From assembly GCA_023150835.1 (NCBI GenBank), contig JAKLKB010000012.1, forward strand, positions 1 to 64,000: a stretch of 64,000 nt of DNA, read 5' to 3'. A program made the translations under genes and the position numbers. A model generated the notes under the pieces. It was not told where the DNA came from. It made no database searches and saw only the letters and a list, made by a program, of their open reading frames with translations. The stretch is from Myxococcota bacterium. GTDB lineage: Bacteria > Myxococcota_C > UBA6777. Numbering within the stretch: the stretch's first letter is position 1; the number at the start of each line of letters is the position of its first letter. This document shows positions 5,199 through 21,454 of this stretch, in pieces.

Positions 5199-5951
5199 AT
5201 GCGAACCCCTCGGCGCTTTTTCTCTTCCTCGACTCCTTCCCTTCCTCCGACGTCTCCTTCGCCTCATCCCCTCTCCTTGTTTCTTCGGTGCTTCTTTGTA
5301 CTGGCTGTGCTGCTTTTGTTCTTTCCCTCTCCCTCTTCTCACTCACAAGATCACCAAGGCTGGCTTGCCCGCACCTACCGCCTTTTTCAACAAGGCAAAC
5401 TCCCTGAAGCCCTTCAACTTCTTCAACAGGCCGAACAAGCCGTCGGTCCTCATCCCGCGTTCTTTTACTACAAGGGCCTGATCTTCCAAGCTCTCCGCCA
5501 GCCCGACCAAGCCCTTGATGCCTATCGACAAGCTGAACCCGCCATCGATCCCAAGTTTCAGCCTTGGCTGCTCAATAACCTCGGAAACCTTTTCTTTCAA
5601 AAAGGCCGCTACCGCACCGCCGCACGCTATTACGCCCGCGCACTTCAAAAAGATCCCAACTATCCCCGCGCACGCTTCAATCTCGAACTCGCCCTCCGTG
5701 CCATCCAACAACCCCCTCCCCCTCCTCCGCCCCCCAACTCCCGACAACAACCCCCTCCCCCTCAACGCCGCGATAGCAAACGCCCTCCGCCACCCCGACC
5801 TCGCAAAAAAGATCAAGTCATCGCTCCTCCCAAACAGCGCAAATGGGCCCTCCCACCCGCAAACGCCTTCCAACTCAAAGCCTTTGACCGATTCCTCCCC
5901 TACAGTCGTGTCCTCAAACATCACAAACTTCGCACACAACAAAACCCATGA
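5199..5951 (+). CDS. BatC-like TPR protein
   Basis: Signal/TM, TPRs (YYKGLIF, NNLGNLFFQKGRY, ARFNLELAL), Pro/Gln-rich tail; Bat context. Confidence 0.8.
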   Translation: MRTPRRFFSSSTPSLPPTSPSPHPLSLFLRCFFVLAVLLLFFPSPSSHSQDHQGWLARTYRLFQQGKLPEALQLLQQAEQAVGPHPAFFYYKGLIFQALRQPDQALDAYRQAEPAIDPKFQPWLLNNLGNLFFQKGRYRTAARYYARALQKDPNYPRARFNLELALRAIQQPPPPPPPPNSRQQPPPPQRRDSKRPPPPRPRKKDQVIAPPKQRKWALPPANAFQLKAFDRFLPYSRVLKHHKLRTQQNP

Positions 5952-6026
5952 TGCCACCCCGCGCCCCTTACCCCGTATCGGCGAAACATACAGACGTTTT
6001 TCAAACCAACCACTGCATCGCTTGAA

Positions 6027-8177
6027 ATGGCGCGAACACGGCTTTTTTCTGCGCTGCACTATACCTGTCTGCATCTGTCCGTGTTTGTCGCCTTCCTCTT
6101 CTGTTTTCAACCCCTCGGATGGACTTATCCTGAAACAAATACAAACGCAAACGCCCAACCATCCGCCTCTTCTAAGCCTACTTCTTCAAACGCCCAACCA
6201 TCCGCCTCTTCTAAGCCTACTTCTTCAAACGCCCAACCATCCGCCTCTTCTAAGCCTACTTCTTCAAACGCCCAACCATCTGCCTCTTCTAAGCCCACAA
6301 CGTCCCCCACAACCCAATCCGCGAGCAAATGGAAACTGCAAGTCCGTCAAAGATACGAAGGGGCTTTGTTGGCGTGGGCTTTACAAAAAACAGGACTTGC
6401 GCTTGAGGCCGATCCCAAGGGCAAGATCATCGACAAAGTGGTGATCGCCCGAGAAGAGATCATCGCTCGCACCGATCCTTGGCCTTACTTCCTCAACATC
6501 TTCCATTACAAAACACGCGAGTCCGTTGTGCGGCAAGAACTCTTAATCCAAGAAGGCGCGGTCTGGAATCCCGCACTGATCGAAGAAACTGCACGCAATC
6601 TGCGCGGGATGTCGATACTGGCCGCTGCGATGATCGTGGCTTGTCGTAGTCCCAAAACCAACCGTGTGATCATGCTCGTGATCACAAAAGACATCTGGAG
6701 CATCCGCTTTAATTCCAGCTACAGCCTCGTCGGCAGCGCCATCCAACTTGGCGAACTCTTCCCCGCCGATATCAATCTGCTCGGCCTCAACAAGCAACTC
6801 GCCTTGCATCTGCGCATCTCTCAACTCGACCTCAGCAACTTCCGCCTCTACGACCACTTTGGCATCGGACAGCTCTTCTACGATCAACGCTTCTTTGGCT
6901 CTCGCTTTCAAGTCTACGAACGCCTCAGCTTCTACATCAACGGCGATGTTCCTTGCGCTGGCGCACAAGGCACACAGACCAACGTCTGGTGTCCCACCCA
7001 AAAATTCGGCTCTCTTCAAGGTGTCTATGGGCAATTTGCTGTGCTCTATCCGTTGTTTTCGCTTGCGAGCCAATGGGGTTTCCGATTTGAAACCACCGTC
7101 GATAGCCGACAACGCCGACTTTATCGCCAAAACCCCGACACCCAAGCCCCTCCCCTCGGCGAACAACAGGGCGTCTCGATCCGCGCTGCAACCTTCGACC
7201 AACACCCCGACGGCATCCTCCGCGCAGTCCCCCGTGTCTACGATGCTTTGCGCGTCACAGGCATCCTCAGCGTCACCCGATCTTTTGGAACTACGCTCAA
7301 ACACGACCTATCTTGGGGGCTTTCAGGATACTACGATCGCAACACACCCCCCGAGCCTTTCCCCTTCGACGATATCACCCGCACGTGGATGCGCAAAACG
7401 ATCCTCCCTCGCAACGAATCCGCGATCTACGCCTTTGTCGGATACAACACCCGAAACACCCAATTCATCCGCCTTCGCAACATCCGCGCTTTTGCACTCA
7501 GCGAAGACTACGCCCTCGGCCCCTCCCTCTGGACCGAGCTTCGCGTCGCCAAGGATCTCGATTACCTCAACCAATACTTTTTTGAAGCCTTTGCCAGCGC
7601 CTCCTATCGCTGGCATCTCCATGGTGATCTCTTGCAGATCGGAGTGTACGCCTTCACACGCTTCCAACCGCTGATCCAAGAACGCACGGATCTCGGATTT
7701 TCCGACCCTTGGATCGATCAATTCTTCCAAGCCTACCTCTACAACATCAGTCCATTGTGGGGTATCGGGCGTTTGCACTTCAAAGCTTTCGTCCAACTCC
7801 GGCGCAACGATATCGACCGCAGCGTCTCGACCCTCGGTGCAGACAACGGCTTGCGCGGTTATCTCAGCAGCGTCTTTGAAGGCCAACATCTCTTTCGCAT
7901 CAATCTCGAATACCGCAGCCTTCCACTCAATCTCTGGACTGTCCACGTCGGATTTGTCGCCTTTTACGATGCAGGAGCCGTCTTCGGTGGCGATGACCCC
8001 GCAAGACCCGGCCAATCCCTCCCCTTCTTCTACAAACAAAGCGTCGGCGTCGGCTTGCGCTTCCAATTCCCCCAATTTGACCGCGAAGCCATCCGCATCG
8101 ATATGGGCATCCCTCTTTCTGACGGCGGCGGTAGCCTCGGTTCTTGGTTCTCTCTCTCCTTTGGCCAAGCCTTCTAA
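6027..8177 (+). CDS. Omp85/BamA-TamA family outer membrane protein
   Basis: Signal peptide, POTRA-like TRESVVRQELL...EETARNLR, LRGY motif, C-terminal FSLSFGQAF. Confidence 0.85.
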   Translation: MARTRLFSALHYTCLHLSVFVAFLFCFQPLGWTYPETNTNANAQPSASSKPTSSNAQPSASSKPTSSNAQPSASSKPTSSNAQPSASSKPTTSPTTQSASKWKLQVRQRYEGALLAWALQKTGLALEADPKGKIIDKVVIAREEIIARTDPWPYFLNIFHYKTRESVVRQELLIQEGAVWNPALIEETARNLRGMSILAAAMIVACRSPKTNRVIMLVITKDIWSIRFNSSYSLVGSAIQLGELFPADINLLGLNKQLALHLRISQLDLSNFRLYDHFGIGQLFYDQRFFGSRFQVYERLSFYINGDVPCAGAQGTQTNVWCPTQKFGSLQGVYGQFAVLYPLFSLASQWGFRFETTVDSRQRRLYRQNPDTQAPPLGEQQGVSIRAATFDQHPDGILRAVPRVYDALRVTGILSVTRSFGTTLKHDLSWGLSGYYDRNTPPEPFPFDDITRTWMRKTILPRNESAIYAFVGYNTRNTQFIRLRNIRAFALSEDYALGPSLWTELRVAKDLDYLNQYFFEAFASASYRWHLHGDLLQIGVYAFTRFQPLIQERTDLGFSDPWIDQFFQAYLYNISPLWGIGRLHFKAFVQLRRNDIDRSVSTLGADNGLRGYLSSVFEGQHLFRINLEYRSLPLNLWTVHVGFVAFYDAGAVFGGDDPARPGQSLPFFYKQSVGVGLRFQFPQFDREAIRIDMGIPLSDGGGSLGSWFSLSFGQAF
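6149..6298 (+). repeat. In-frame 39-bp tandem repeat x4 (NAQPSASSKPTSS)
   Basis: AACGCCCAACCATCCGCCTCTTCTAAGCCTACTTCTTCA repeated just after the signal peptide. Confidence 0.95.
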
Positions 8178-8313
8178 CCCAACGCCCCCAACGCCCTCCA
8201 ACGCCTCTTTCCTCCGATTGCATCGTGTGTCGCAATTGTGCTAGGTTGTCGTGTACTCTACCGCGCCGTAGATCGGCGATCTTTGCGCCACTCTTTCGCC
8301 ACACAGCCAACCC

Positions 8314-11300
8314 ATGAGACCACGAGAGGCGATCTTGACATCTCCCCGCTCCACCACCCCCGAACGATGCCCGCGCTGTAGTCACACCCTGACCCGCAGC
8401 CCCAACGCAGAATTGGCCTTTTGCCTCAATTGCCGCTTTCCGCTCAAACCCATCGCTGGAAAGTACCGATTGATGCGCCAACTCGGCAAAGGCGGCACGG
8501 GCACCGTTTATCTCGCCAAACACATCCACCTCCGACGACAGGCCGAGCGCGTCGTCAAGGTCGTCCCTCTCGAACCCACCCAAACCCACCAGATCGATCG
8601 CTTTGAACAAGAGATCCAAGTCACCGCCCTGCTTTCCCAACAAAATGAACATATCGTCCGCATCTACGACGACTTTGGACACGAGCCTGAACTCGGCTAC
8701 TACTACGTTATGGAATTCCTTGAGGGCCGCAGCCTCCGCGAGATCCTGATCCAACGCGAGCGACTTTCCCCCAAAGAAGCCATCCATATCACTCACCAAC
8801 TCTGTCTCGCCCTTCAACTCGCCCACTCCGAAGATATCATCCACCGCGATATCAAACCCGAAAATATCCTTGTCATCGAACGCAACGACGATCCTTTCTT
8901 CGTCAAACTGATCGACTTCGGCATCGCCCACCTTCTCGAAAATCAAAGCAACGACGGCCCCGCACAAGTCATCGTCGGAACCCCCCTCTACATGGCCCCC
9001 GAACAATGCCTCAACCGCACCATCGACGCTCGCACCGACCTTTACGCCGTTGGTATCGTGCTTTACGAGATGCTTACCGGACAACATCCCTTCGTCGATA
9101 TGCACAACCTCGACCAAAGCAACAGCCTTTCCATCATGTTCGCCCAAGTCTGGAACGCCCCTCCCAGCCCACACGAACGCTTCCCCTCCCTCCAAGCCCC
9201 CAAAAAACTCGACGACGTCCTCTCCAAGATCCTCGCCAAAGACCCCAACGAACGCTTCCAACACGCCCAAGATATGGACACCGCCCTCCAACGTGCCGCC
9301 CAAGATGCCGATTGGTCCGCCTCTTCCACTTCAACCGCTACTTCGACCTCCCACGCACGGCCTCCCCAGATCCACCACACCGTCAGCGAACAAGACCGAT
9401 CCAGCGCTCCCACCGACCCTTACCCCGGCACACAAACGCGCATCCAACACGACACTTCTGAACAACCCAACGAAGCCCCCATCCAGCTTGAAAGCGACCT
9501 CCTCCCTTCCGCCTCTGACTTCGATGAAAAAGAAAAAGCTCCCATCGTCTACCGTACCCTCCTTAGTGCGCAACTTGCGAGCTTACCGCGACCCAAGCTC
9601 CAAAAGACCAACATCCGCCCTCTCCACAAAAGCTTTGTCGGACGACACCAAGAACTCCAAGATCTCCAAGACGCCTACGCACGCGGCGAACGGCTTGTCT
9701 CCCTTCTCGGCCCGGGTGGTACAGGGAAAACCAGCCTCGCACAACACTTTGGCCTCCAACAAGTCGACCAATTCGACGGAGGGGTCTGGTTTTGCGATCT
9801 CAGCGAATGTTATTCCCTCCCCGAGATGCTCCAATCCATCGCCCAAGCCCTCCGCATCACCCTTCACCCGGGTGAAGCCGAACAACACATCCATCAGATC
9901 GGCTACGCGCTTCATTGTCGCGGCCAAGCCCTGATCATCCTCGACAACTTCGAGCAGATCACCCCCCACGCACTCCCCACCGTCGGACGCTGGTCTCAAG
10001 AAGAAACCCTCGTCCGCTTTCTTGTCACCTCTCGCGAAAAGCTCCAAATCATCGGCGAATGCGCTATCCCTCTCCCACCTCTCCCCGCAGATCAAGCCGT
10101 TCAACTCTTCCTCGATCGCGCACGCACTCTCCGCCCGCGTTGGCAACCCAACCACCAAGAACTCCGAACCATCGAACAGATCGTCAAACACCTTGATCGC
10201 CTTCCCCTTGCCATCGAACTTGCCGCCGCACGCATCGACATCCTCTCTCCACAAGCCCTGTTCGAACGCCTCCAACAACGCTTCAACCTCCTCTCTCATC
10301 CAAGCCAAGGTGTCCCCGCCCGACAAGCCACTCTGCGCGGAGCCATCGACTGGTCGTGGGATCTCCTCAGCGACGCCGAGCGCGACGCCTTCACCCAATG
10401 CGCCATCTTTCGCGGCGGCTTTACCCTCGAAGCTGCCGAGCGCATCCTTCAACTCGACCCCAACGCAATCTCCACCATCGACTTGATCCAAGCCCTCCGC
10501 AACAAGTCCCTTCTCTACATCCTCCCCAACGAACACCCCCAACAAAACCAACGCCTCGGTATGTACGAAAGCATCCGCGAATACGCCAAAGAGCACTTCC
10601 ATCAATCCCCCAAACGCGGCGATGTCGCCGCCATGCACGCCGCGTATTATCTCGAACTCGCCGAGTCTCTTCTTCACGATCTCCACACAAACAACGGACT
10701 CTCCAACCTTCGACAGCTTCTTGCCGAAACCGAAAACCTCCAAGCCATCTTCGATCGCTACGTCCCCCACGATCCCAACGTCGCTCTGCGCGCTCTTCTT
10801 GTCCTACAGCCCGCCCTCGAACGCAAACAAACCCAAGACACCATGCTCCAAATGGTCCAACTCGTCCTCAACCAACAAAACAAAGTCCAGCCCGCTCTCT
10901 ACCCCCGCGCATTCCGCCTCTATGCCCATCTCTGCCGACGCCTCGGCTTTCTCGACCAAGCCAACAAAAGCCTACACACCGCCATCACACAAGCCATCCA
11001 ACACTTCGACCCCCTCGAAGAAGCCCAAGCCCGACTCGCCCAAGGCCATCTCTTCACACAACGCCGTCTGCGCGAAGAAGCCCAAGCCGCCTTCCGTTCG
11101 GCTCTCCTGTTCTTCGAACAAAACAAACAACATCCCCATCTGCTCGCCGACACCTACAACGCTCTCGGCTCCCTATCCCGACAACATGGCTCCCTCGAAG
11201 AAGCCGAACCCTATCACCTCAAAGCCCTTTCCCTTCAACGCCAATACGCCGACAGCAACGGTGAAGCCATCACACTCGGACAACTCGGACACCTCTATCG

Positions 11301-12351
11301 CCTCCAAGGCCGATACCACGAAGCCATCCACGTCTACGATCTCGCCCTCTCTCTCCACCGCGCTTGGGAAGATCGCATCGGCGAAGGCATCACCCTCAAC
11401 AACCTCGCCAACATCCACGCCCGACAAGGCCGACTCACCGAAGCCGAAGCCAACTACCGCACTTCTCTCTCCCTTCATCGTGCAGGGGGCGACCGACGCG
11501 GCGAAGCCATCGCCCTCGGACAACTCGGTAATCTCCTCCTTCTGCTCGGAAAAACCGATGATGCCGAGCGGATGCAGATGCAGGCCCGCACTCTCCACGA
11601 AGCTCTCCACGATACCAAGGGCCTCTCCATCTCCCTCAACAACCTCGCCAACCTCTACCGCGCACAACACCGCCTCCCCGATGCCAAGGCACTTTACCAA
11701 CAAGCCCACGAACTCCAATCCCAACAACAAGACCCCCTTGGCCTCGCCTTTACCAACCTTTACACCGCCTTGCTTCTACTCGAAGAAGATCACCTACACC
11801 CCCAACTTCCACAACACCTCCAAGATGCCCTCGACTTCTTCTCCAAACGACAACAACAACAAGAGTTTCACGGCCTTGCTCTCTCCGCATGGGGCTCTTT
11901 CCATCGCGCCATGGCTCGCCCACAACAAGCCCTCTCTTTCTACCAAAAAGCCCTCCCTTGCTTCCGAAACACCGATGCCCGCCTTGATGCTTGGACTCGC
12001 GCCACCATCGGCGCTTTGCGCGCTGACCTCGGCGAGATCGTCCCCGCCGAACAAGTCCTCCTCCACGCCTCCGAAACCATCCAACGACTCGAAGATCCCC
12101 TCGGACGCAGCTTTGCCCTCCTCTGCCGCGCACACCTCGACCTCGCCTTCCAACGCGAAGCACTCCAACACAACGACCCCACCGCCGCACAACACCACCT
12201 CTCCACCGCAAAACACCGCCTCCACCAAGCCCAACAACCTCTCCCCCAACAAAACAACCCTCCCTCCGCCTTCTCCCCCGAGATCCGTCTCGCCATCCGC
12301 GCCTTCCAATCCCTCCTCCCCGCCGCTCCCCCTCCACCCAAAACCCTCTAA
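8314..12351 (+). CDS. Hanks-type Ser/Thr kinase fused to STAND/NB-ARC-type ATPase and TPR repeats
   Basis: CPRC/CLNC zinc ribbon; GKGGTG, HRDIKPEN, DFG, APE; GPGGTGKT, LIILDNFE, LPLAIELAAAR; many TPRs (NNLANIH). Confidence 0.92.
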   Translation: MRPREAILTSPRSTTPERCPRCSHTLTRSPNAELAFCLNCRFPLKPIAGKYRLMRQLGKGGTGTVYLAKHIHLRRQAERVVKVVPLEPTQTHQIDRFEQEIQVTALLSQQNEHIVRIYDDFGHEPELGYYYVMEFLEGRSLREILIQRERLSPKEAIHITHQLCLALQLAHSEDIIHRDIKPENILVIERNDDPFFVKLIDFGIAHLLENQSNDGPAQVIVGTPLYMAPEQCLNRTIDARTDLYAVGIVLYEMLTGQHPFVDMHNLDQSNSLSIMFAQVWNAPPSPHERFPSLQAPKKLDDVLSKILAKDPNERFQHAQDMDTALQRAAQDADWSASSTSTATSTSHARPPQIHHTVSEQDRSSAPTDPYPGTQTRIQHDTSEQPNEAPIQLESDLLPSASDFDEKEKAPIVYRTLLSAQLASLPRPKLQKTNIRPLHKSFVGRHQELQDLQDAYARGERLVSLLGPGGTGKTSLAQHFGLQQVDQFDGGVWFCDLSECYSLPEMLQSIAQALRITLHPGEAEQHIHQIGYALHCRGQALIILDNFEQITPHALPTVGRWSQEETLVRFLVTSREKLQIIGECAIPLPPLPADQAVQLFLDRARTLRPRWQPNHQELRTIEQIVKHLDRLPLAIELAAARIDILSPQALFERLQQRFNLLSHPSQGVPARQATLRGAIDWSWDLLSDAERDAFTQCAIFRGGFTLEAAERILQLDPNAISTIDLIQALRNKSLLYILPNEHPQQNQRLGMYESIREYAKEHFHQSPKRGDVAAMHAAYYLELAESLLHDLHTNNGLSNLRQLLAETENLQAIFDRYVPHDPNVALRALLVLQPALERKQTQDTMLQMVQLVLNQQNKVQPALYPRAFRLYAHLCRRLGFLDQANKSLHTAITQAIQHFDPLEEAQARLAQGHLFTQRRLREEAQAAFRSALLFFEQNKQHPHLLADTYNALGSLSRQHGSLEEAEPYHLKALSLQRQYADSNGEAITLGQLGHLYRLQGRYHEAIHVYDLALSLHRAWEDRIGEGITLNNLANIHARQGRLTEAEANYRTSLSLHRAGGDRRGEAIALGQLGNLLLLLGKTDDAERMQMQARTLHEALHDTKGLSISLNNLANLYRAQHRLPDAKALYQQAHELQSQQQDPLGLAFTNLYTALLLLEEDHLHPQLPQHLQDALDFFSKRQQQQEFHGLALSAWGSFHRAMARPQQALSFYQKALPCFRNTDARLDAWTRATIGALRADLGEIVPAEQVLLHASETIQRLEDPLGRSFALLCRAHLDLAFQREALQHNDPTAAQHHLSTAKHRLHQAQQPLPQQNNPPSAFSPEIRLAIRAFQSLLPAAPPPPKTL

Positions 12352-12396
12352 TTCCCTTGGGTCGTATTTCGAAGCGTGCAACTCCCTCTGGTCGTT

Positions 12397-12428
12397 GTCC
12401 GTGCCTTCCGTGCCTTACGTGGACTCTT
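12397..12428. repeat. Short TTCCGTG-type repeat element, related to one at about 18608
   Basis: GTCCGTGCCTTCCGTGCCTTACGTGGAC versus TTCCGTGCCTTCCGTGTATTCCGTGGAC. Confidence 0.55.
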
Positions 12429-12443
12429 TACCCTTCCCGTGCC

Positions 12444-14732
12444 TTACTTTGCCAGTACTTTGGCGCGGGACTCCGCCCTCTCCCACATCCGAATATAGGC
12501 TTCCGCAGACCGAAAGAGCGGCTCCAAGGCTTTGTCCGTCACACCATCGCGACGGACATCTTCGATCAGTTCCGGCAACAATCCGATATGGATCATACCT
12601 TCCTGATTGAAGTCGACTTTTCGCTCGCCAAGCTCGGGCTGAGTAAAAGTCACTTCACCATCATACGACTTGAACGGATATGTGACGGGGTTTACTTGCA
12701 CAGTGCCGCATCGGGCGTTCGCTCCAAAACGTGGGCGTGGACCACCAGCAAACCCGTTCAAGTCAAAACTCAGCGCCTCGGCTGGGTAAGCCCCCTTGCT
12801 CTTCGCCAGCGCGACATCATCCGCCAGACGCTTGCCCATGACGCCCGATTTGCTTGCATCACCACAACGGCCCAAGCTCGTACCAATCAGACCACCGAGG
12901 GCATAAATACGACCATCGTTGCTGTTGCCGTGGGTCTTCGTGGCGGGGTAATTGTTTTTTTCGAGGATCGCATAAGCCTCACTCAAAGCCCGCTGAGGCA
13001 GATGAGCGATATCAATGATCATCCCTCGTTTCATAAGCTGCTCCATCAGGGTGTTGCCCAACGGCGTCAGACCGGTCTTCTGGCAGTATTTACCTTTCGC
13101 TGGCGGCGCTTGGATCTTGGACAGATGTGGCAGCAGGGTTGCGAGAGGATCCGCCACAAAGCCGGACATATCGATCGGTGCTTTGGAGTCGTAGGTATCA
13201 CGCGGCTGGTTCAGTCCCCCAAAGAAGACATCCCCTTCATCAAAGGACGTCGAGATGCCGTTACAATCTTTGACGAAGTTGGAGTAGTGTCCGCTGTTAA
13301 TGAAGTTGCCCAGCTCGATAATCCCTCGGCTGCCATCTCCAGCCGAAAAGCCGTTGTCAAACTTATGGACGGGGAAGATCACGCGCACGCCTCGCTTGTG
13401 GTACTGATCGACTTTGGCGTTGACCGCATCCTCTGTGCAAGCTGTAAAGCCCTTGGGTGGCGTCAAAAAGCAATCGAAGAGATTGGATATCTCGATGCCC
13501 AAGACAACCGCCAATTTCCCCTCGTTGATCACGTCACGTGCGGCCTTGGGACTGGTGACCACACGCAACCAACCTTTTCCCGGCCCGCCAGATTGGGCGT
13601 CGATGTATCGTTCCAAGGCATAGACCGAATCGATAGCTCGATCGACACTCACCATGTCGTTGCAAGAATACAAGGTCTTCTGGGCTTTGACGGCCAATGT
13701 GAGTTCGCACATCATCGAGTTCCCTGTGGCGTGCTGCACCAAAAGACGCAACCCTCCGAGGTAGGCACGCTCAAGCCAGCGGTAATACATAGTCTGGTGG
13801 GTCGAACGACGCCATGAGCTCGGCCACTCGGTGAACTTGGGGTATCCCGCCGTATGATGGTTGAACTCTGCGACTTGGCCCTTGGTAAAGATCGGAAGGA
13901 TCGAATCCAAATCAAATTTTAACTTATCGTTGTCGTAGAAATATCCCATGATGTCATTGCGACCCTCCTGACCGTGCGAACGCGAGCAGTCAGACAAGGC
14001 ATGTTCCACACCCAGCCGATGAAACGGCGCACCATGAAAGACGCCGCCACCACCAAAACCGACGTTGCTCAGCATGTGAGAGTGGATCTCGGCGATGCCG
14101 TAAACATCGCCATCATCCCACTTCCGAGGTTTGGCTGCGCCTGTTGCGTCGATGCTGAGTTCGGGAAAGCTGGCACAGCCCTCTGTTGGGTGCAATCGGA
14201 TCATCGCCGCCTTAGCGGTATCATCGGTGAGACCCGACATGCTCAAAAAACGGCCCGTTGCGTAGTGTTGAAGTTGATACCGCTTGGGGTCACGCGCCGA
14301 GATCTGTAAGATCCACTCCGCCGGCGACTTCTCGTTTTCATCGAGCTTATCGAGAACGGATGTCAGCTTGGACAACCGAGTGAAGCTCCACTGATCACCG
14401 CTAGAACTCGCTGCAAAGTAGCGGCGCTCCGTGTCAAAAAGCAGATAGACTCCAAGGTCTGACGGACGCAGGGAAAAGCGCGCCGCAGTCTTGGAAGAGT
14501 CCGCCGAAAAGCTAAACTGCTCTGGGGTTTGTCCCGCTCCGATGTAGCGCGCAGCGTTCGCACCATCGAAGCCCTCGATGGTATAACAGCCGTTGGCCAC
14601 AGAGTACACGCTGTCTTGCGCGAGCGGAGGCTCCGTCTTTTCACACCCCATCAACAGCGCACACAAAACGAGACCCAAAAGCCTATCACACACGAAGGAC
14701 CGGAAAAAACGCAACGAAGAAAACGTAGACAT
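12444..14732 (-). CDS. Lipoprotein, membrane dipeptidase (M19)/amidohydrolase family with N-terminal beta domain
   Basis: Lipobox LLMGC; EIHSH, LAVVLGIE, PVHKFDN, GLTPLG, MIIDIAH, HIGLLPEL. Confidence 0.8.
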   Translation of the reverse strand: MSTFSSLRFFRSFVCDRLLGLVLCALLMGCEKTEPPLAQDSVYSVANGCYTIEGFDGANAARYIGAGQTPEQFSFSADSSKTAARFSLRPSDLGVYLLFDTERRYFAASSSGDQWSFTRLSKLTSVLDKLDENEKSPAEWILQISARDPKRYQLQHYATGRFLSMSGLTDDTAKAAMIRLHPTEGCASFPELSIDATGAAKPRKWDDGDVYGIAEIHSHMLSNVGFGGGGVFHGAPFHRLGVEHALSDCSRSHGQEGRNDIMGYFYDNDKLKFDLDSILPIFTKGQVAEFNHHTAGYPKFTEWPSSWRRSTHQTMYYRWLERAYLGGLRLLVQHATGNSMMCELTLAVKAQKTLYSCNDMVSVDRAIDSVYALERYIDAQSGGPGKGWLRVVTSPKAARDVINEGKLAVVLGIEISNLFDCFLTPPKGFTACTEDAVNAKVDQYHKRGVRVIFPVHKFDNGFSAGDGSRGIIELGNFINSGHYSNFVKDCNGISTSFDEGDVFFGGLNQPRDTYDSKAPIDMSGFVADPLATLLPHLSKIQAPPAKGKYCQKTGLTPLGNTLMEQLMKRGMIIDIAHLPQRALSEAYAILEKNNYPATKTHGNSNDGRIYALGGLIGTSLGRCGDASKSGVMGKRLADDVALAKSKGAYPAEALSFDLNGFAGGPRPRFGANARCGTVQVNPVTYPFKSYDGEVTFTQPELGERKVDFNQEGMIHIGLLPELIEDVRRDGVTDKALEPLFRSAEAYIRMWERAESRAKVLAK

Positions 14733-18393: not shown

Positions 18394-18640
18394 CCCATCC
18401 CCATCCACATTTCCATCCACATCCACATTTCCATCCCCATCCACATTTCCATCCCCATCCACATTTCCATCCCCATCCACATTTCCATCCACATCCCCAT
18501 CCCCATCCCCATCCACATTTCCATCCCCATCCCCATCCCCATCCACATTTCCATCCACATCCACATTTCCTTTCCCTTTCCCTTTCCCTTTCCCTTTTCC
18601 TTTCCCTTTCCGTGCCTTCCGTGTATTCCGTGGACTGTTT
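18394..18640. repeat. Compound hexamer simple-sequence repeat (CCATCC/CCACAT/TTCCAT, then TTTCCC)
   Basis: Directly visible; no G on the + strand for about 215 bp. Confidence 0.95.
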
Positions 18641-18662: not shown

Positions 18663-19775
18663 CTAGCTCGACGCCTCGACAAACACCTCGAAAAATCGGC
18701 GCGGATCGTAGTCCAAGATGATCCATGTATTGGACTGGGGAGCCAGAACAGACCCCCAACCGCCGCGTTCTCGGAACAAGGAAACTTCGGCCCATGTAGC
18801 GATCGAAGGATCGATGGCGCAACAAGCAGCGAGTGGATCGTGAAACTTTTTGCCGATGGGTTCGGCATCTTCGGAGACGGACGGCGGTTTCAGCGTTGTG
18901 CGTGCAACAGGCGGAGAGGTCTCGGGTGAGACTTCGATCAGATACCCCCCACGTTGGCGACTTTGTGCGAGAGCATACGCAGTTGGGCAGATCCCTTGTG
19001 AAGCGCCCGCCTCATCGATCCAAAGGACTTCTGAAGCATCGATCTGCTCGTCGTATCGGAGGGGATGGGGTGCGCGATCGATCTTCTTTTGCAGATACAC
19101 GTCCATGCCGTCCCAGATCCAAGCGAGGCTTTTGCAGTGGGAGCGGTATGGGGCGAGGGCTGCGTGGAAGTCTACATCATAAAAGACGCGATGGCAGACG
19201 TTTTTGGACACCAAACGCCGCAAGCCGATCCCCGAATGTTCGAGGGCTGCAAGCGCGGTCTTGGGATCGCCGTTGAAATTGAATGTCGGGACGCTTCGTC
19301 GTCCTCGAAACTGCGGAAGCTGTAGGTGTTCAGGGACCACGCCTTCTCCTGCAAATCCGCCCTGCGCGACCCATCGGCCCAATCGAAATCGCGGATCGCG
19401 TACAGCTTCCCGAAGATTTTTGAGCGGTGCGCCCGTGATCAGGGTGGTCTCTTGATCGCAGATCTCGCGCAACAAGGATTGCGCAGGAACGGCATCATGC
19501 GAAGGCTCGATCATCCCGTAGGCTTTTTCGTGCCAAGAAGACACACACGACTTGGGGTGTTCAAGATCTCCCGCTCCTACGGGGATATCGACACCAAAGG
19601 CCGCGAGCGTACGCCGCACAAGACCGACTTGATAGACCGACCCGGGCGTGATCGTGACGGCTTTCAAACGCACCTTGGGATGTCCAAGCAACAGCAGCAG
19701 CGTGATGTAATCGTCGGGATCATGGGTTTCCATATCGAACACAACAGGCAGGGGATACGACAAGACTTCTTGCAT
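18663..19775 (-). CDS. Nucleoside hydrolase family protein with inserted IF3-N-like domain
   Basis: N-terminal DMETHDPDD, GAPLKNL, FNFNGDP, HDPLA; insert at about 18895-19062. Confidence 0.82.
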   Translation of the reverse strand: MQEVLSYPLPVVFDMETHDPDDYITLLLLLGHPKVRLKAVTITPGSVYQVGLVRRTLAAFGVDIPVGAGDLEHPKSCVSSWHEKAYGMIEPSHDAVPAQSLLREICDQETTLITGAPLKNLREAVRDPRFRLGRWVAQGGFAGEGVVPEHLQLPQFRGRRSVPTFNFNGDPKTALAALEHSGIGLRRLVSKNVCHRVFYDVDFHAALAPYRSHCKSLAWIWDGMDVYLQKKIDRAPHPLRYDEQIDASEVLWIDEAGASQGICPTAYALAQSRQRGGYLIEVSPETSPPVARTTLKPPSVSEDAEPIGKKFHDPLAACCAIDPSIATWAEVSLFRERGGWGSVLAPQSNTWIILDYDPRRFFEVFVEASS

Positions 19776-19812
19776 CAAGCCTCCAATTCAAGCCCCCAAA
19801 AAGAACACCGCG

Positions 19813-20946
19813 CTAATACAATTTGACACGGAAGTTGAGGATGCGTCCGCCCCGATCGATGCGTAAGGTGACGATTTGACCGATCTTAAAGTTTTCGAGG
19901 GTGGTCATGAGAGATTCGACGTTGGTGATACGGATCTGATTGATGGCAAGGATGATATCGCCGAGGATGATATCGCCGTCTTGGGTGGTACGCATACCTT
20001 GGATGCCGACACGACCGGCGGGGCCGTCGGCTTTGACTTGGCCGATCATGACGCCGATCTTGCCGAGGCTGCGCATCATCTCGGTATCTTGGTAAGGAAC
20101 GACGCCAAGGCGCGGATGGCGGAGCCGACCATAGCGGATGAGTTGAGGGACGATCTTGTTGACGGTATCGACGGGGACGGCAAAGCCGATACCTGCGCTT
20201 GCGCGAGAAGGGCTTTTGATAGCGGTGTTGATACCGATCAAGCGGCCTGCGCTATCGAGCAATGGGCCGCCTGAGTTGCCGGGGTTGATCGCCGCATCGG
20301 TCTGGATCACACCGAGGATGGGGCGCCCGCTCAATGAGCGGATCTGCCGATTGAGTGCGCTGACGACGCCCGTGGTAAGGGTGCGATCCAAGCCGAAGGG
20401 ATTGCCGATGGCAAGGACATTTTGGCCGACTTGGAGGTGATCGGAGCGTCCAACGGAGATCGGGAAGAGCTTGCTTGCGGGGGCATTGATGCGAAGCACA
20501 GCGATATCGCTGTTGGGAGCGCGCCCGACGACTCTTGCGATCCATGTGCTGCGATCGGGAAGACGGATGCGTACGGTGGTTGCATCGCGGATGACGTGAA
20601 AGTTGGTGATGATGTGGCCACGTCGATCCCAGACAAACCCCGAGCCTGTGCCTTGGCGGGGAGGTCCATCGCCAAAGATATCGAACGGATCGCGTTGGCT
20701 TTGGAGGGTGGTGATAAACACGACGGAGCGCGAAGCGGCCTTGAAGATGCGGATCACATTGCGCTCTCCGGGTTCAAGTTGAGAAGTCGCCTCTTTGGGG
20801 CGTTTGGCGCTTGCGGTGAAGTATTCGAGCGCAAACCAACACAACGTCGATGCGACGGCTGCGCTCACAAACATGCCGAGCCAATTTTTGATAGGGTGAT
20901 AGGTGGGTGGATTCCACAATCCATCGGAAGATTCTTGTTTTCGCAT
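19813..20946 (-). CDS. HtrA/DegP-family serine protease with one PDZ domain
   Basis: TM anchor; GSGFVW, TNFHVI, DIAVL, GNPFGL, TDAAINPGNSGGPL; start MRKQE inferred. Confidence 0.93.
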   Translation of the reverse strand: MRKQESSDGLWNPPTYHPIKNWLGMFVSAAVASTLCWFALEYFTASAKRPKEATSQLEPGERNVIRIFKAASRSVVFITTLQSQRDPFDIFGDGPPRQGTGSGFVWDRRGHIITNFHVIRDATTVRIRLPDRSTWIARVVGRAPNSDIAVLRINAPASKLFPISVGRSDHLQVGQNVLAIGNPFGLDRTLTTGVVSALNRQIRSLSGRPILGVIQTDAAINPGNSGGPLLDSAGRLIGINTAIKSPSRASAGIGFAVPVDTVNKIVPQLIRYGRLRHPRLGVVPYQDTEMMRSLGKIGVMIGQVKADGPAGRVGIQGMRTTQDGDIILGDIILAINQIRITNVESLMTTLENFKIGQIVTLRIDRGGRILNFRVKLY

Positions 20947-21085
20947 GGACGGCTCTCCGTGTTGGGAGAAAGCAAAAAAAACGGGCCACACAAAGAAGAT
21001 GTGAAGCCCGCGCAAAAGAATAAGCCGACTATGTGCGAAGATCAAGCGAAGCCCGTTGGTTGGGTCGCGCTTGATTTGGGGATCG

Positions 21086-21454
21086 TTAGGCTGGTTTGAT
21101 CTGGATGGTGCGGGCCTTGGTTTCGGGTGCTTTGGGGAGATGGATGGTCGCGACACCCTGTTCAAGTTTTGCAGCGATCTTGTCGACATCGACGCGTTGT
21201 TGGACTTGGAAAACGCGGCGATAATGTGTGGGCAAAAACTCCAAACCAAGGGCTTTTTCGCGATCAAACGGTGATTGTTCACCTTCGATGGTGAGTTGCT
21301 GATCGTGAAATTCGATGCGCAGCTTGTTGGCGGATACGCCCGGCAATTCAGCGACGACAAGGATCTCGTCGTTGTTCTCGAAGATATCGACCGAAGGTGT
21401 TGCGTAGAATCGTTCATCCGTAGCTTCTTGTGCAGTTTTGGTGGTCTGGGACAT
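21086..21454 (-). CDS. Hsp20/alpha-crystallin small heat-shock protein
   Basis: GGAGG RBS; PSVDIFE, AELPGV, AKLEQGVATIHLPK. Confidence 0.92.
   Translation of the reverse strand: MSQTTKTAQEATDERFYATPSVDIFENNDEILVVAELPGVSANKLRIEFHDQQLTIEGEQSPFDREKALGLEFLPTHYRRVFQVQQRVDVDKIAAKLEQGVATIHLPKAPETKARTIQIKPA

Follow-up and report, generated by a model that had tools for sequence, protein, structure and literature searches.

An initiation factor 3 N-terminal domain nested beside the putative catalytic His-Asp pair of a divergent nucleoside-hydrolase-fold protein

Architecture of the protein

How does the N-terminal domain of a bacterial translation initiation factor come to lie inside a protein of the nucleoside hydrolase (NH) fold, and what would it do there? 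The question is raised by an open reading frame (ORF) on the minus strand of a 64,000-nucleotide stretch of DNA from a Myxococcota bacterium (GTDB lineage Bacteria; Myxococcota_C; UBA6777; GenBank assembly GCA_023150835.1, contig JAKLKB010000012.1, positions 1 to 64,000), which is hereafter called the window. The product of this ORF is a two-domain protein, a divergent NH-fold protein that carries a nested N-terminal domain of initiation factor 3 (IF3-N). The insert is a genuine IF3 N-terminal domain, homologous by sequence, profile and predicted structure at a level far above chance. It adjoins the invariant His-Asp pair of the core, and we consider its present role to be probably that of a lid or docking surface at the pocket entrance, one that evolves fast and can be dispensed with. 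The parts of the protein are as follows.

18663–19778, minus strand: whole ORF, 371 codons from a TTG at 19778, with the stop codon at 18663–18665
19074–19778, minus strand: first part of the NH core, amino acids 1–235, with a long helix (216–235) at its end
19710–19736, minus strand: N-terminal metal/catalytic fingerprint, D15-M-E-T-H-D-P-D-D23
19062–19073, minus strand: short N-side linker, amino acids 236–239, delimited by the alignment and the AlphaFold2 model
18900–19061, minus strand: IF3-N-like β-grasp domain, amino acids 240–293, peptide LRYDEQ...PPVAR, delimited by Pfam, profile and structure searches; strands 250–254, 260–265, 279–284 and 291–295 and helix 266–275 in the AlphaFold2 model
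18855–18899, minus strand: C-side linker, amino acids 294–308, of variable sequence, with a predicted local distance difference test (pLDDT) score of 73 in the block 301–310
18666–18854, minus strand: second part of the NH core, amino acids 309–371, starting with G309-K-K-F-H313-D314-P-L-A-A-C-C
18837–18842, minus strand: His313-Asp314, an invariant pair that corresponds, in group I NHs, to the His acting on the leaving group and to the final Ca2+-binding Asp

The ATG at 19775 is likely to be the true start, because the identical database protein P0002 consists of 370 amino acids. The original prediction, which had been made from the sequence of the window alone, gave the peptide of the insert exactly; its coordinates (18895–19062) were a few bases out of frame, their direct translation running into a stop codon, and are corrected here to 18900–19061. 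It had placed the insert between the hydrolase core and its HDPLA motif, and this is indeed the arrangement found. The Pfam model IU_nuc_hydro (PF01156) spans residues 13–363 (52.1 bits, gathering cut-off 34.2), the insert occupies residues 240–293, and the HDPLA motif begins at residue 313.

Identity of the nested domain

The second Pfam family of this protein, IF3_N (PF05198), also scores above its gathering cut-off on the whole protein (36.9 bits, E = 4.3e-9, cut-off 26.9). Residues 243–293 fall on profile positions 2–52 of 70, with 51 residues on 51 profile positions, so that the alignment is gapless, as had been proposed. The excised insert reaches 41.9 bits (E = 1.2e-10), and the nested copy scores 39.9 bits in an IF3_N scan of the window's genome. 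All 10 inserts cut from the genome loci described below match IF3_N at E ≤ 0.01 (best E = 2e-16), and the inserts score 24.9–42 bits in the genome scans. When compared with the PDB sequences, the single sequence gave an E-value of 0.05, and a profile built from the 10 inserts placed IF3 chains at the top ranks (1tif_A, E = 2.6e-14; 5me0_Y, 1.2e-13; 8jsg_A, 1.5e-12). The relationship is also seen in the opposite direction. A hidden Markov model of the 54 distinct inserts matches nine of nine bona fide infC products from unrelated genomes with 67.6–79.1 bits, and the whole protein, used as the query, retrieved the infC genes of 17 unrelated genomes through residues ~222–294 alone.

Structure prediction agrees with the profile searches. 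The AlphaFold2 model of the insert alone (pLDDT 94.6) has a strand-strand-helix-strand-strand topology, with strands at 13–17, 23–28, 41–47 and 54–59 and a helix at 29–38 in the numbering of that model. In a Foldseek search with this model, ranks 1–10 were all IF3 or mitochondrial IF3, headed by 1tif with a template modelling (TM) score of 0.93, a root-mean-square deviation of 1.2 Å and 36% identity. VIA-align, which is independent of Foldseek and was run against 48,161 chains, gave 1tif a Z-score of 11.4 over 60 of 60 residues, mitochondrial IF3 a Z-score of 8.0, and the first unrelated fold 4.0. The predicted insert thus superposes on a solved IF3-N, and the claim of a captured IF3-N domain stands on the agreement of Pfam, PDB profile, Foldseek and VIA-align. 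The same β-grasp is present at residues 250–295 of the full-length model (pLDDT 94.1, predicted TM score 0.87). Table 1 of the survey by Burroughs and co-authors (PMC1949818) lists the topology of IF3-N as a basal four-stranded β-grasp (S1-S2-H-S3-S5), and the insert has this topology both in the AlphaFold2 model and by superposition on IF3-N.

The window's genome encodes its true infC on another contig (115 bits), so that the nested copy is a second and partial one; an ordinary infC elsewhere in the genome is likewise found in four other insert-carrying genomes. Annotation of the protein as translation initiation factor IF-3 was rejected, since the infC equivalog model TIGR00168 scores 23.6 bits against a cut-off of 60, matching residues 241–293 only, and since the linker helix and the C-domain are absent; Pfam found no IF3_C match in the window's protein.

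A second full-length IF3_N match in an infC-sized frame was observed in two other genomes (G004:C5:45948-46148, 63.5 bits; G041:C1:5446259-5446465, 93.7 bits). These copies are distinct from the nested one and are possibly infC paralogues. A PF05198 match occurs in 291 of the 301 genomes of the phylum of G041, a count in which nested copies are not separated from the others.

The nucleoside-hydrolase core

The top Foldseek matches of the full-length model are all NHs, the best being 6zk1_B (E = 9.6e-13), with TM scores of 0.57–0.68 (normalised by target length) and sequence identities of 13–17%. Residues M16, E17, T18, D20, P21, D22 and D23 of the fingerprint are invariant in 30 of 30 aligned family members, as is the stretch H313-D314-P-L-A-A-C-C; in a larger alignment set, the His-Asp pair is kept in 58 of 59 insert-bearing rows and in all 128 short-loop rows. 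The HMMER alignment to 6ba1_A brings the fingerprint onto LDLDTG-VDD and H313-D314 onto HDPLA. Compared with the canonical DxDxxxDD motif, the fingerprint D15-M-E17-T-H-D20-P-D22-D23 is longer by one residue and has Glu in place of the second Asp. The signature of group I, a His directly preceding the last Ca2+-binding Asp, is present as H313-D314.

According to the review by Degano (PMC8910321), Ca2+ is bound in NHs by the last Asp and two Asp residues of the fingerprint, the pocket holds the ribose through its 2' and 3' hydroxyls, and, in group I, the leaving base is protonated by the His that precedes the last Asp. In group II, a flexible loop that lies immediately before the equivalent residue becomes ordered upon substrate binding (PMC8910321). 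Judged from these sequence correspondences, both metal binding by the variant fingerprint and N-glycosidase activity of the core are plausible. The core would still be a hydrolase because E17, D22, D23, H313 and D314 do not vary, whether the insert is present or absent.

Five cysteines are also invariant in the 30-sequence alignment (C78, C107, C195, C319 and C320), the last two forming a Cys-Cys pair immediately after HDPLAA. No NCBIfam model was found for the hydrolase core and no PADLOC match, and the ESM Atlas returned only generic NH clusters (scores 0.89–0.90). Several distant relatives of the core (P0125, P0137, P0164, P0172 and P0186) carry fused domains. Among the 10 long forms tested, there is a NUDIX domain in three (one below the Pfam cut-off), an AAA_16 STAND-type ATPase in one (below the cut-off) and an ion-transport domain in one; five of the 10 contain 300–460 residues that match no Pfam family, and the extra regions of P0154 and P0129 gave no meaningful match among the PDB sequences. 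These fusions hint at a nucleotide or an ADP-ribose-related ligand for the wider family.

Insertion site

In relatives without the insert, a turn of 2–3 residues joins the end of helix 216–235 to G309-K-K-F-H-D. The nested domain replaces this turn, just before the invariant His313-Asp314, and all inserts share this one site. The proposed proximity of the insert to the catalytic His-Asp pair is thereby confirmed in the family alignment and in the alignment to 6ba1_A. Because the insert-less turn is so short, the two anchor points of the insert must be spatial neighbours, four residues from the catalytic His. A domain of 25–30 Å that is tethered within roughly 25 Å of this His would then have to lie at the rim of the pocket. 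In some other relatives, the same loop is filled by unrelated linkers of 5–31 residues. When the core columns were examined for coupling to the insert, only S81 stood out (0.76 versus 0.25), an association that may be phylogenetic.

Distribution of the insert

An insert was counted in homologues when it comprised 45 residues or more. Among the 120 best homologues listed from a collection of 5.8 billion proteins, 47 carry it, and 38 of these already bear a precomputed PF05198 label; in a library clustered at 50% identity, it is found in 3 of the 150 top-ranking representatives. Relatives are encoded at 139 loci of species-representative genomes; 80 of these loci were kept for analysis, and 10 of the 80 have the insert. 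The 10 loci belong to Polyangiales, Haliangiales, Nannocystaceae, other Myxococcota or 'Deltaproteobacteria' metagenome-assembled genomes, and three Dactylosporangium (taxon names as in the record titles). Most of the other loci have the turn of 2–3 residues and come from filamentous cyanobacteria, Cytophagales, Nannocystis, Candidatus Uabimicrobium and Anaerolineae. The architecture is accordingly no one-off. The small GTDB phylum of the window's genome is represented by five genomes at 80% completeness or more, of 7–11 Mb each, and within it the nested copy occurs only in the window's genome; two others (G004 and G005) encode insert-less homologues, and in a third (G001), at a contig end, no more than the first 79 residues are encoded.

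Origin, inheritance and loss

The pairwise identities of the inserts follow those of the cores (Pearson coefficient 0.62, reached in 0 of 2000 permutations), which fits a single capture followed by inheritance with the gene. All 54 distinct inserts share the site and also the loss of an Arg at column 12 that is a signature of IF3. We infer that IF3-N was captured once from infC in the ancestor of a mainly myxobacterial clade and was then inherited with the gene, also passing to Dactylosporangium. The latter genus also has distinct paralogues without the insert, and in the tree its insert-bearing copy falls within the myxobacterial sequences, a placement that suggests acquisition by transfer.

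The domain has been deleted repeatedly, in places leaving remnants of its linkers. A FastTree phylogeny of 210 rows was computed from core columns only (two partial rows had been dropped, and the filters for duplicates and for 250 residues removed none). On this tree the state of the insert requires 19 changes, at least 7 of which are forced by well-supported branches. A tree in which the insert-bearing rows form one clade was rejected for 91 rows picked from the 210 (36 with and 55 without the insert), with a difference in log-likelihood of 549 and a p-value of 2.2e-49 in the approximately unbiased test; the group compared was named after the first tree had been seen, and the search was a quick one with no mixture model. 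The clearest single case is locus L065 (6001-6930, Dactylosporangium sp. NBC_01737), which lies inside the Dactylosporangium insert clade; the domain is cleanly absent from it, and a remnant of the C-side linker, HRESADP, is kept. Another is protein P0005, whose loop has 11 residues and which groups with the clade of the window protein as its sister (support 100). Such repeated loss means that the core enzyme can do without the insert. L065 and the insert-bearing loci L022, L023 and L024 make up a natural set without and with the domain inside one genus.

Where it is present, the insert is under purifying selection. In three Dactylosporangium pairs, the ratio of non-synonymous to synonymous substitution rates (dN/dS) is 0.09–0.21 for the insert and 0.22–0.28 for the core, with only 3–5 amino-acid changes per pair. 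Over longer distances, the inserts share a mean identity of 33% with each other and the cores 63%, and the inserts share 36% with real IF3-N domains.

Possible roles of the nested domain

We hold it to be probable that the core functions as an N-ribosyl hydrolase that depends on metal, and that the IF3-N captured from infC into the loop beside the catalytic His-Asp has become a lid or docking module at the pocket mouth. There it would select or gate a bulky substrate or partner, and it would no longer act as an IF3-like ribosome binder. The role of a lid or docking surface is proposed because the insert is tethered so close to the catalytic His.

The main alternative, already suggested in the original prediction, is that the module would still bring an N-glycosidase to tRNA, rRNA or ribosomes, through the partners that it has in IF3 (the elbow of tRNA, or the platform of the 30S subunit close to uS11). 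In IF3 itself, the N domain first contacts the 30S platform close to uS11 and afterwards the tRNA elbow (PMC8266586, PMC5037330), and basal β-grasp domains are tied to RNA metabolism (PMC1949818). The inserts have retained the fold and its structural positions (V16 in 83%, G23 in 85%, A34 in 96%, A38 in 91%, L45 in 91% and P55 in 85%) together with the PPVCR end, and they adjoin a pocket that in NHs grips the 2' and 3' hydroxyls of ribose (PMC8910321). Against such targeting, the inserts lack the conserved polar signature of IF3 (the Arg of the I-R pair, the P-N-A loop and the I-M-D end). The column-12 Arg is present in 8 of the nine sequences of our IF3 reference set and in 0 of 54 inserts, and the other IF3 polar positions are kept in few inserts (N51 in 4%, T31 in 11%, D61 in 2% and P50 in 19%). 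In 47 of 54 inserts, the globular part carries a net negative charge (mean −3.5, down to −11; −5 in the window's protein). The loss of basic residues and the repurposed look noticed in the original prediction are hence borne out across the family. Moreover, the nested domain, which covers profile positions 2–52 of 70 only, has neither the Lys-rich linker helix of IF3 nor its C-domain, and the contacts of IF3 with 16S rRNA are made by residues 63–70, 86–97 and 101–105 (PMC5037330). The domain has been lost many times, and no translation gene is a conserved neighbour in the loci compared. From the sequences, targeting to tRNA or ribosomes is somewhat disfavoured, and we regard it as rather unlikely. 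A bolder form of the same idea, in which the nested IF3-N makes the protein the first NH-fold N-glycosidase aimed at nucleic-acid-bound or ribosome-bound ribose, depurinating or de-ribosylating a component of translation, appears distinctly unlikely. Its targets might be, for example, the free 2',3'-diol nucleotide at the tRNA 3' end or ADP-ribose on an RNA base. Weak hints in its direction come from the NUDIX, ion-channel and STAND-type ATPase fusions of the distant relatives, and from an ADP-ribosylglycohydrolase gene that neighbours the homologue in four Nannocystis loci, with L080 as a weak fifth.

A different kind of explanation holds that the insert is a tolerated passenger, which only needs to fold harmlessly, contributes nothing and is slowly being lost. 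The repeated deletions, the unrelated insertions of 10–31 residues in the same loop, the divergence of the inserts at about twice the rate of the cores and the want of any tightly coupled core column (S81 being the best) would all suit such a passenger. Yet the dN/dS of the insert is as low as that of the core, although it is calculated from few changes; the domain has been retained over cores that have diverged to ~50–60% identity, in two phyla; all 10 tested inserts pass or approach the Pfam model; and the predicted fold is of very high confidence. Taken together, these observations make a mere passenger very unlikely. As for an artefact, whether chance similarity, mis-assembly or a chimeric contig, its probability is negligible given E-values of 1e-9 to 1e-14, the structural Z-score, the same in-frame architecture in 57 other sequences from many sources, and RNA-library contigs from three runs of one other sample that cover the gene with 0 differences.

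The proposal of a lid or docking module on a working hydrolase has, for its part, several observations to contend with. A basic residue stands at R58 of the PPVCR motif in 87% of the inserts and at column 17 in 52%, 46 of 54 inserts have an N-side linker of net positive charge, and over the columns of the globular part the nine IF3-N references themselves range from neutral to mildly acidic (net charge 0 to −3), all of which would be compatible with some remaining affinity for RNA. The fingerprint departs from DxDxxxDD, and NH-like proteins with variant motifs, of which XopQ is one, are inactive on nucleosides (PMC8910321), so that catalysis is not assured. The position of the domain over the pocket is deduced from chain topology, the clade test has the limits given with it, and the low identity among the inserts as compared with the cores means that selection may act on little beyond foldedness.

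Comparison with known systems

The insert shares with the IF3 N-terminal domain (PF05198; PDB 1TIF) the same strand-strand-helix-strand-strand β-grasp, an identity of 35–36% over ~60 gapless residues, and the hydrophobic core, glycines and PPVCR motif. It differs from that domain in being nested in another enzyme rather than heading an IF3, in lacking the linker helix and IF3_C, in the loss, from all or nearly all of the 54 inserts, of the signature Arg and further conserved polar residues, in its more acidic character, and in the presence of a normal infC elsewhere in the genome. The literature consulted describes IF3-N as part of the bacterial initiation factor and of the related organellar factors; in the present case, an enzyme of metabolic type has acquired it next to its catalytic residues and has long retained it.

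With the group I Ca2+-dependent N-ribohydrolases (IU-NH of Crithidia fasciculata; RihA, RihB and RihC of E. coli; PF01156), the host protein has in common the NH fold, the HDPLA motif with a His preceding the last metal-binding Asp, and an acidic fingerprint near the N terminus, where strand 1 ends. In contrast to these enzymes, it has DMETxDPDD instead of DxDxxxDD, five invariant cysteines and the nested IF3-N; it is only distantly related to the solved NHs (13–17% identity). The NH-like domains of the effectors XopQ and HopQ1 resemble it in fold and in their non-canonical aspartate motif. XopQ binds ADP-ribose and does not hydrolyse common nucleosides (PMC3608555, PMC8910321), and it provides an earlier example of an NH fold that accommodates a larger ribosyl ligand. 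However, XopQ lacks the leaving-group residue (PMC8910321), which is kept here as H313, and neither XopQ nor HopQ1 contains an IF3-N insert; they were not among Foldseek ranks 1–49 for the full model.

A full-text literature search, with subscription-only papers and supplements outside its reach, found no paper on an IF3-N-in-NH architecture, on this NH clade or on any assayed member of it, and the available part of the 2007 β-grasp survey (PMC1949818) makes no mention of NHs. The host clade is unstudied and occurs mainly in large-genome bacteria (myxobacteria, filamentous cyanobacteria, Dactylosporangium, Cytophagales and Candidatus Uabimicrobium), and the insert offers a handle on what this clade acts on. 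Many natural pairs differ in whether they have the domain, some of them inside a single genus, which makes its role testable by simple comparison. If the domain does still recognise RNA, the protein would be a new kind of RNA-directed N-glycosidase.

Genomic neighbourhood, expression and other features of the window

An HtrA-type protease gene (19816–21417, minus strand) lies 35 bases upstream of the hydrolase gene on the same strand; its product comprises Trypsin_2 and PDZ domains and ~250 N-terminal residues without a Pfam family. Further upstream is an Hsp20 gene, and two FGE-sulfatase genes lie downstream, past a tandem repeat. No conserved neighbourhood was detected. BLAST comparison of the flanking ORFs of the window with the 80 loci, together with all-against-all clustering, gave shadow ORFs and lineage-specific neighbours only, and Pfam searches on 10 flanking ORFs of six insert-bearing loci found nothing related (a thiamine pyrophosphate enzyme, GNAT, beta-lactamase-like proteins, or no match).

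Some lineages do show recurrent neighbours of insert-less homologues. In the four Nannocystis loci (L051:4490-5971, L053, L056 and L060), the ADP-ribosylglycohydrolase gene is divergent and stands beside an insert-less homologue (206.7 bits with the Pfam model in L051); in L080, the match to this family is weak. In filamentous cyanobacteria (L038, and also L037, L039, L041 and L063), the insert-less homologue lies between an ORF of 104–115 amino acids without a Pfam match and a giant eCIS_core protein; in L038, the small ORF is at 5645–5977 and the eCIS_core protein, of 1885 amino acids, at 6921–12575. A gene for an ABC-F type ATPase (ABC_tran, ABC_tran_Xtn, ABC_tran) adjoins the homologue at L019:7082-8683 and in eight other loci (Polyangium spp., L032 and L040). 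These homologues lack the domain and have a linker of 21–23 residues in the loop instead. The ABC-F family, as the neighbour of the Polyangium homologues, is one that we take to be ribosome-associated.

The whole gene is covered, with 0 differences, by contigs from metatranscriptome libraries (three runs of a single activated-sludge sample), one of which extends from the hydrolase gene into the HtrA-type protease gene. These contigs are compatible with transcription, although they give neither strand nor level and may derive from carried-over DNA. All of them end at 18621, where the search skipped the tandem repeat. This array (18395–18611), just past the stop codon of the hydrolase gene, consists of an 18-bp unit, CCATCCCCATCCACATTT, repeated ~10 times and followed by CCTTTC ~7 times, and it yields long spurious His/Pro-rich ORFs on both strands. 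Elsewhere in the window, a gene at 8314–12348 on the plus strand encodes a STAND-type signalling protein of 1345 amino acids with a protein kinase domain, an NB-ARC/AAA ATPase and TPR repeats.

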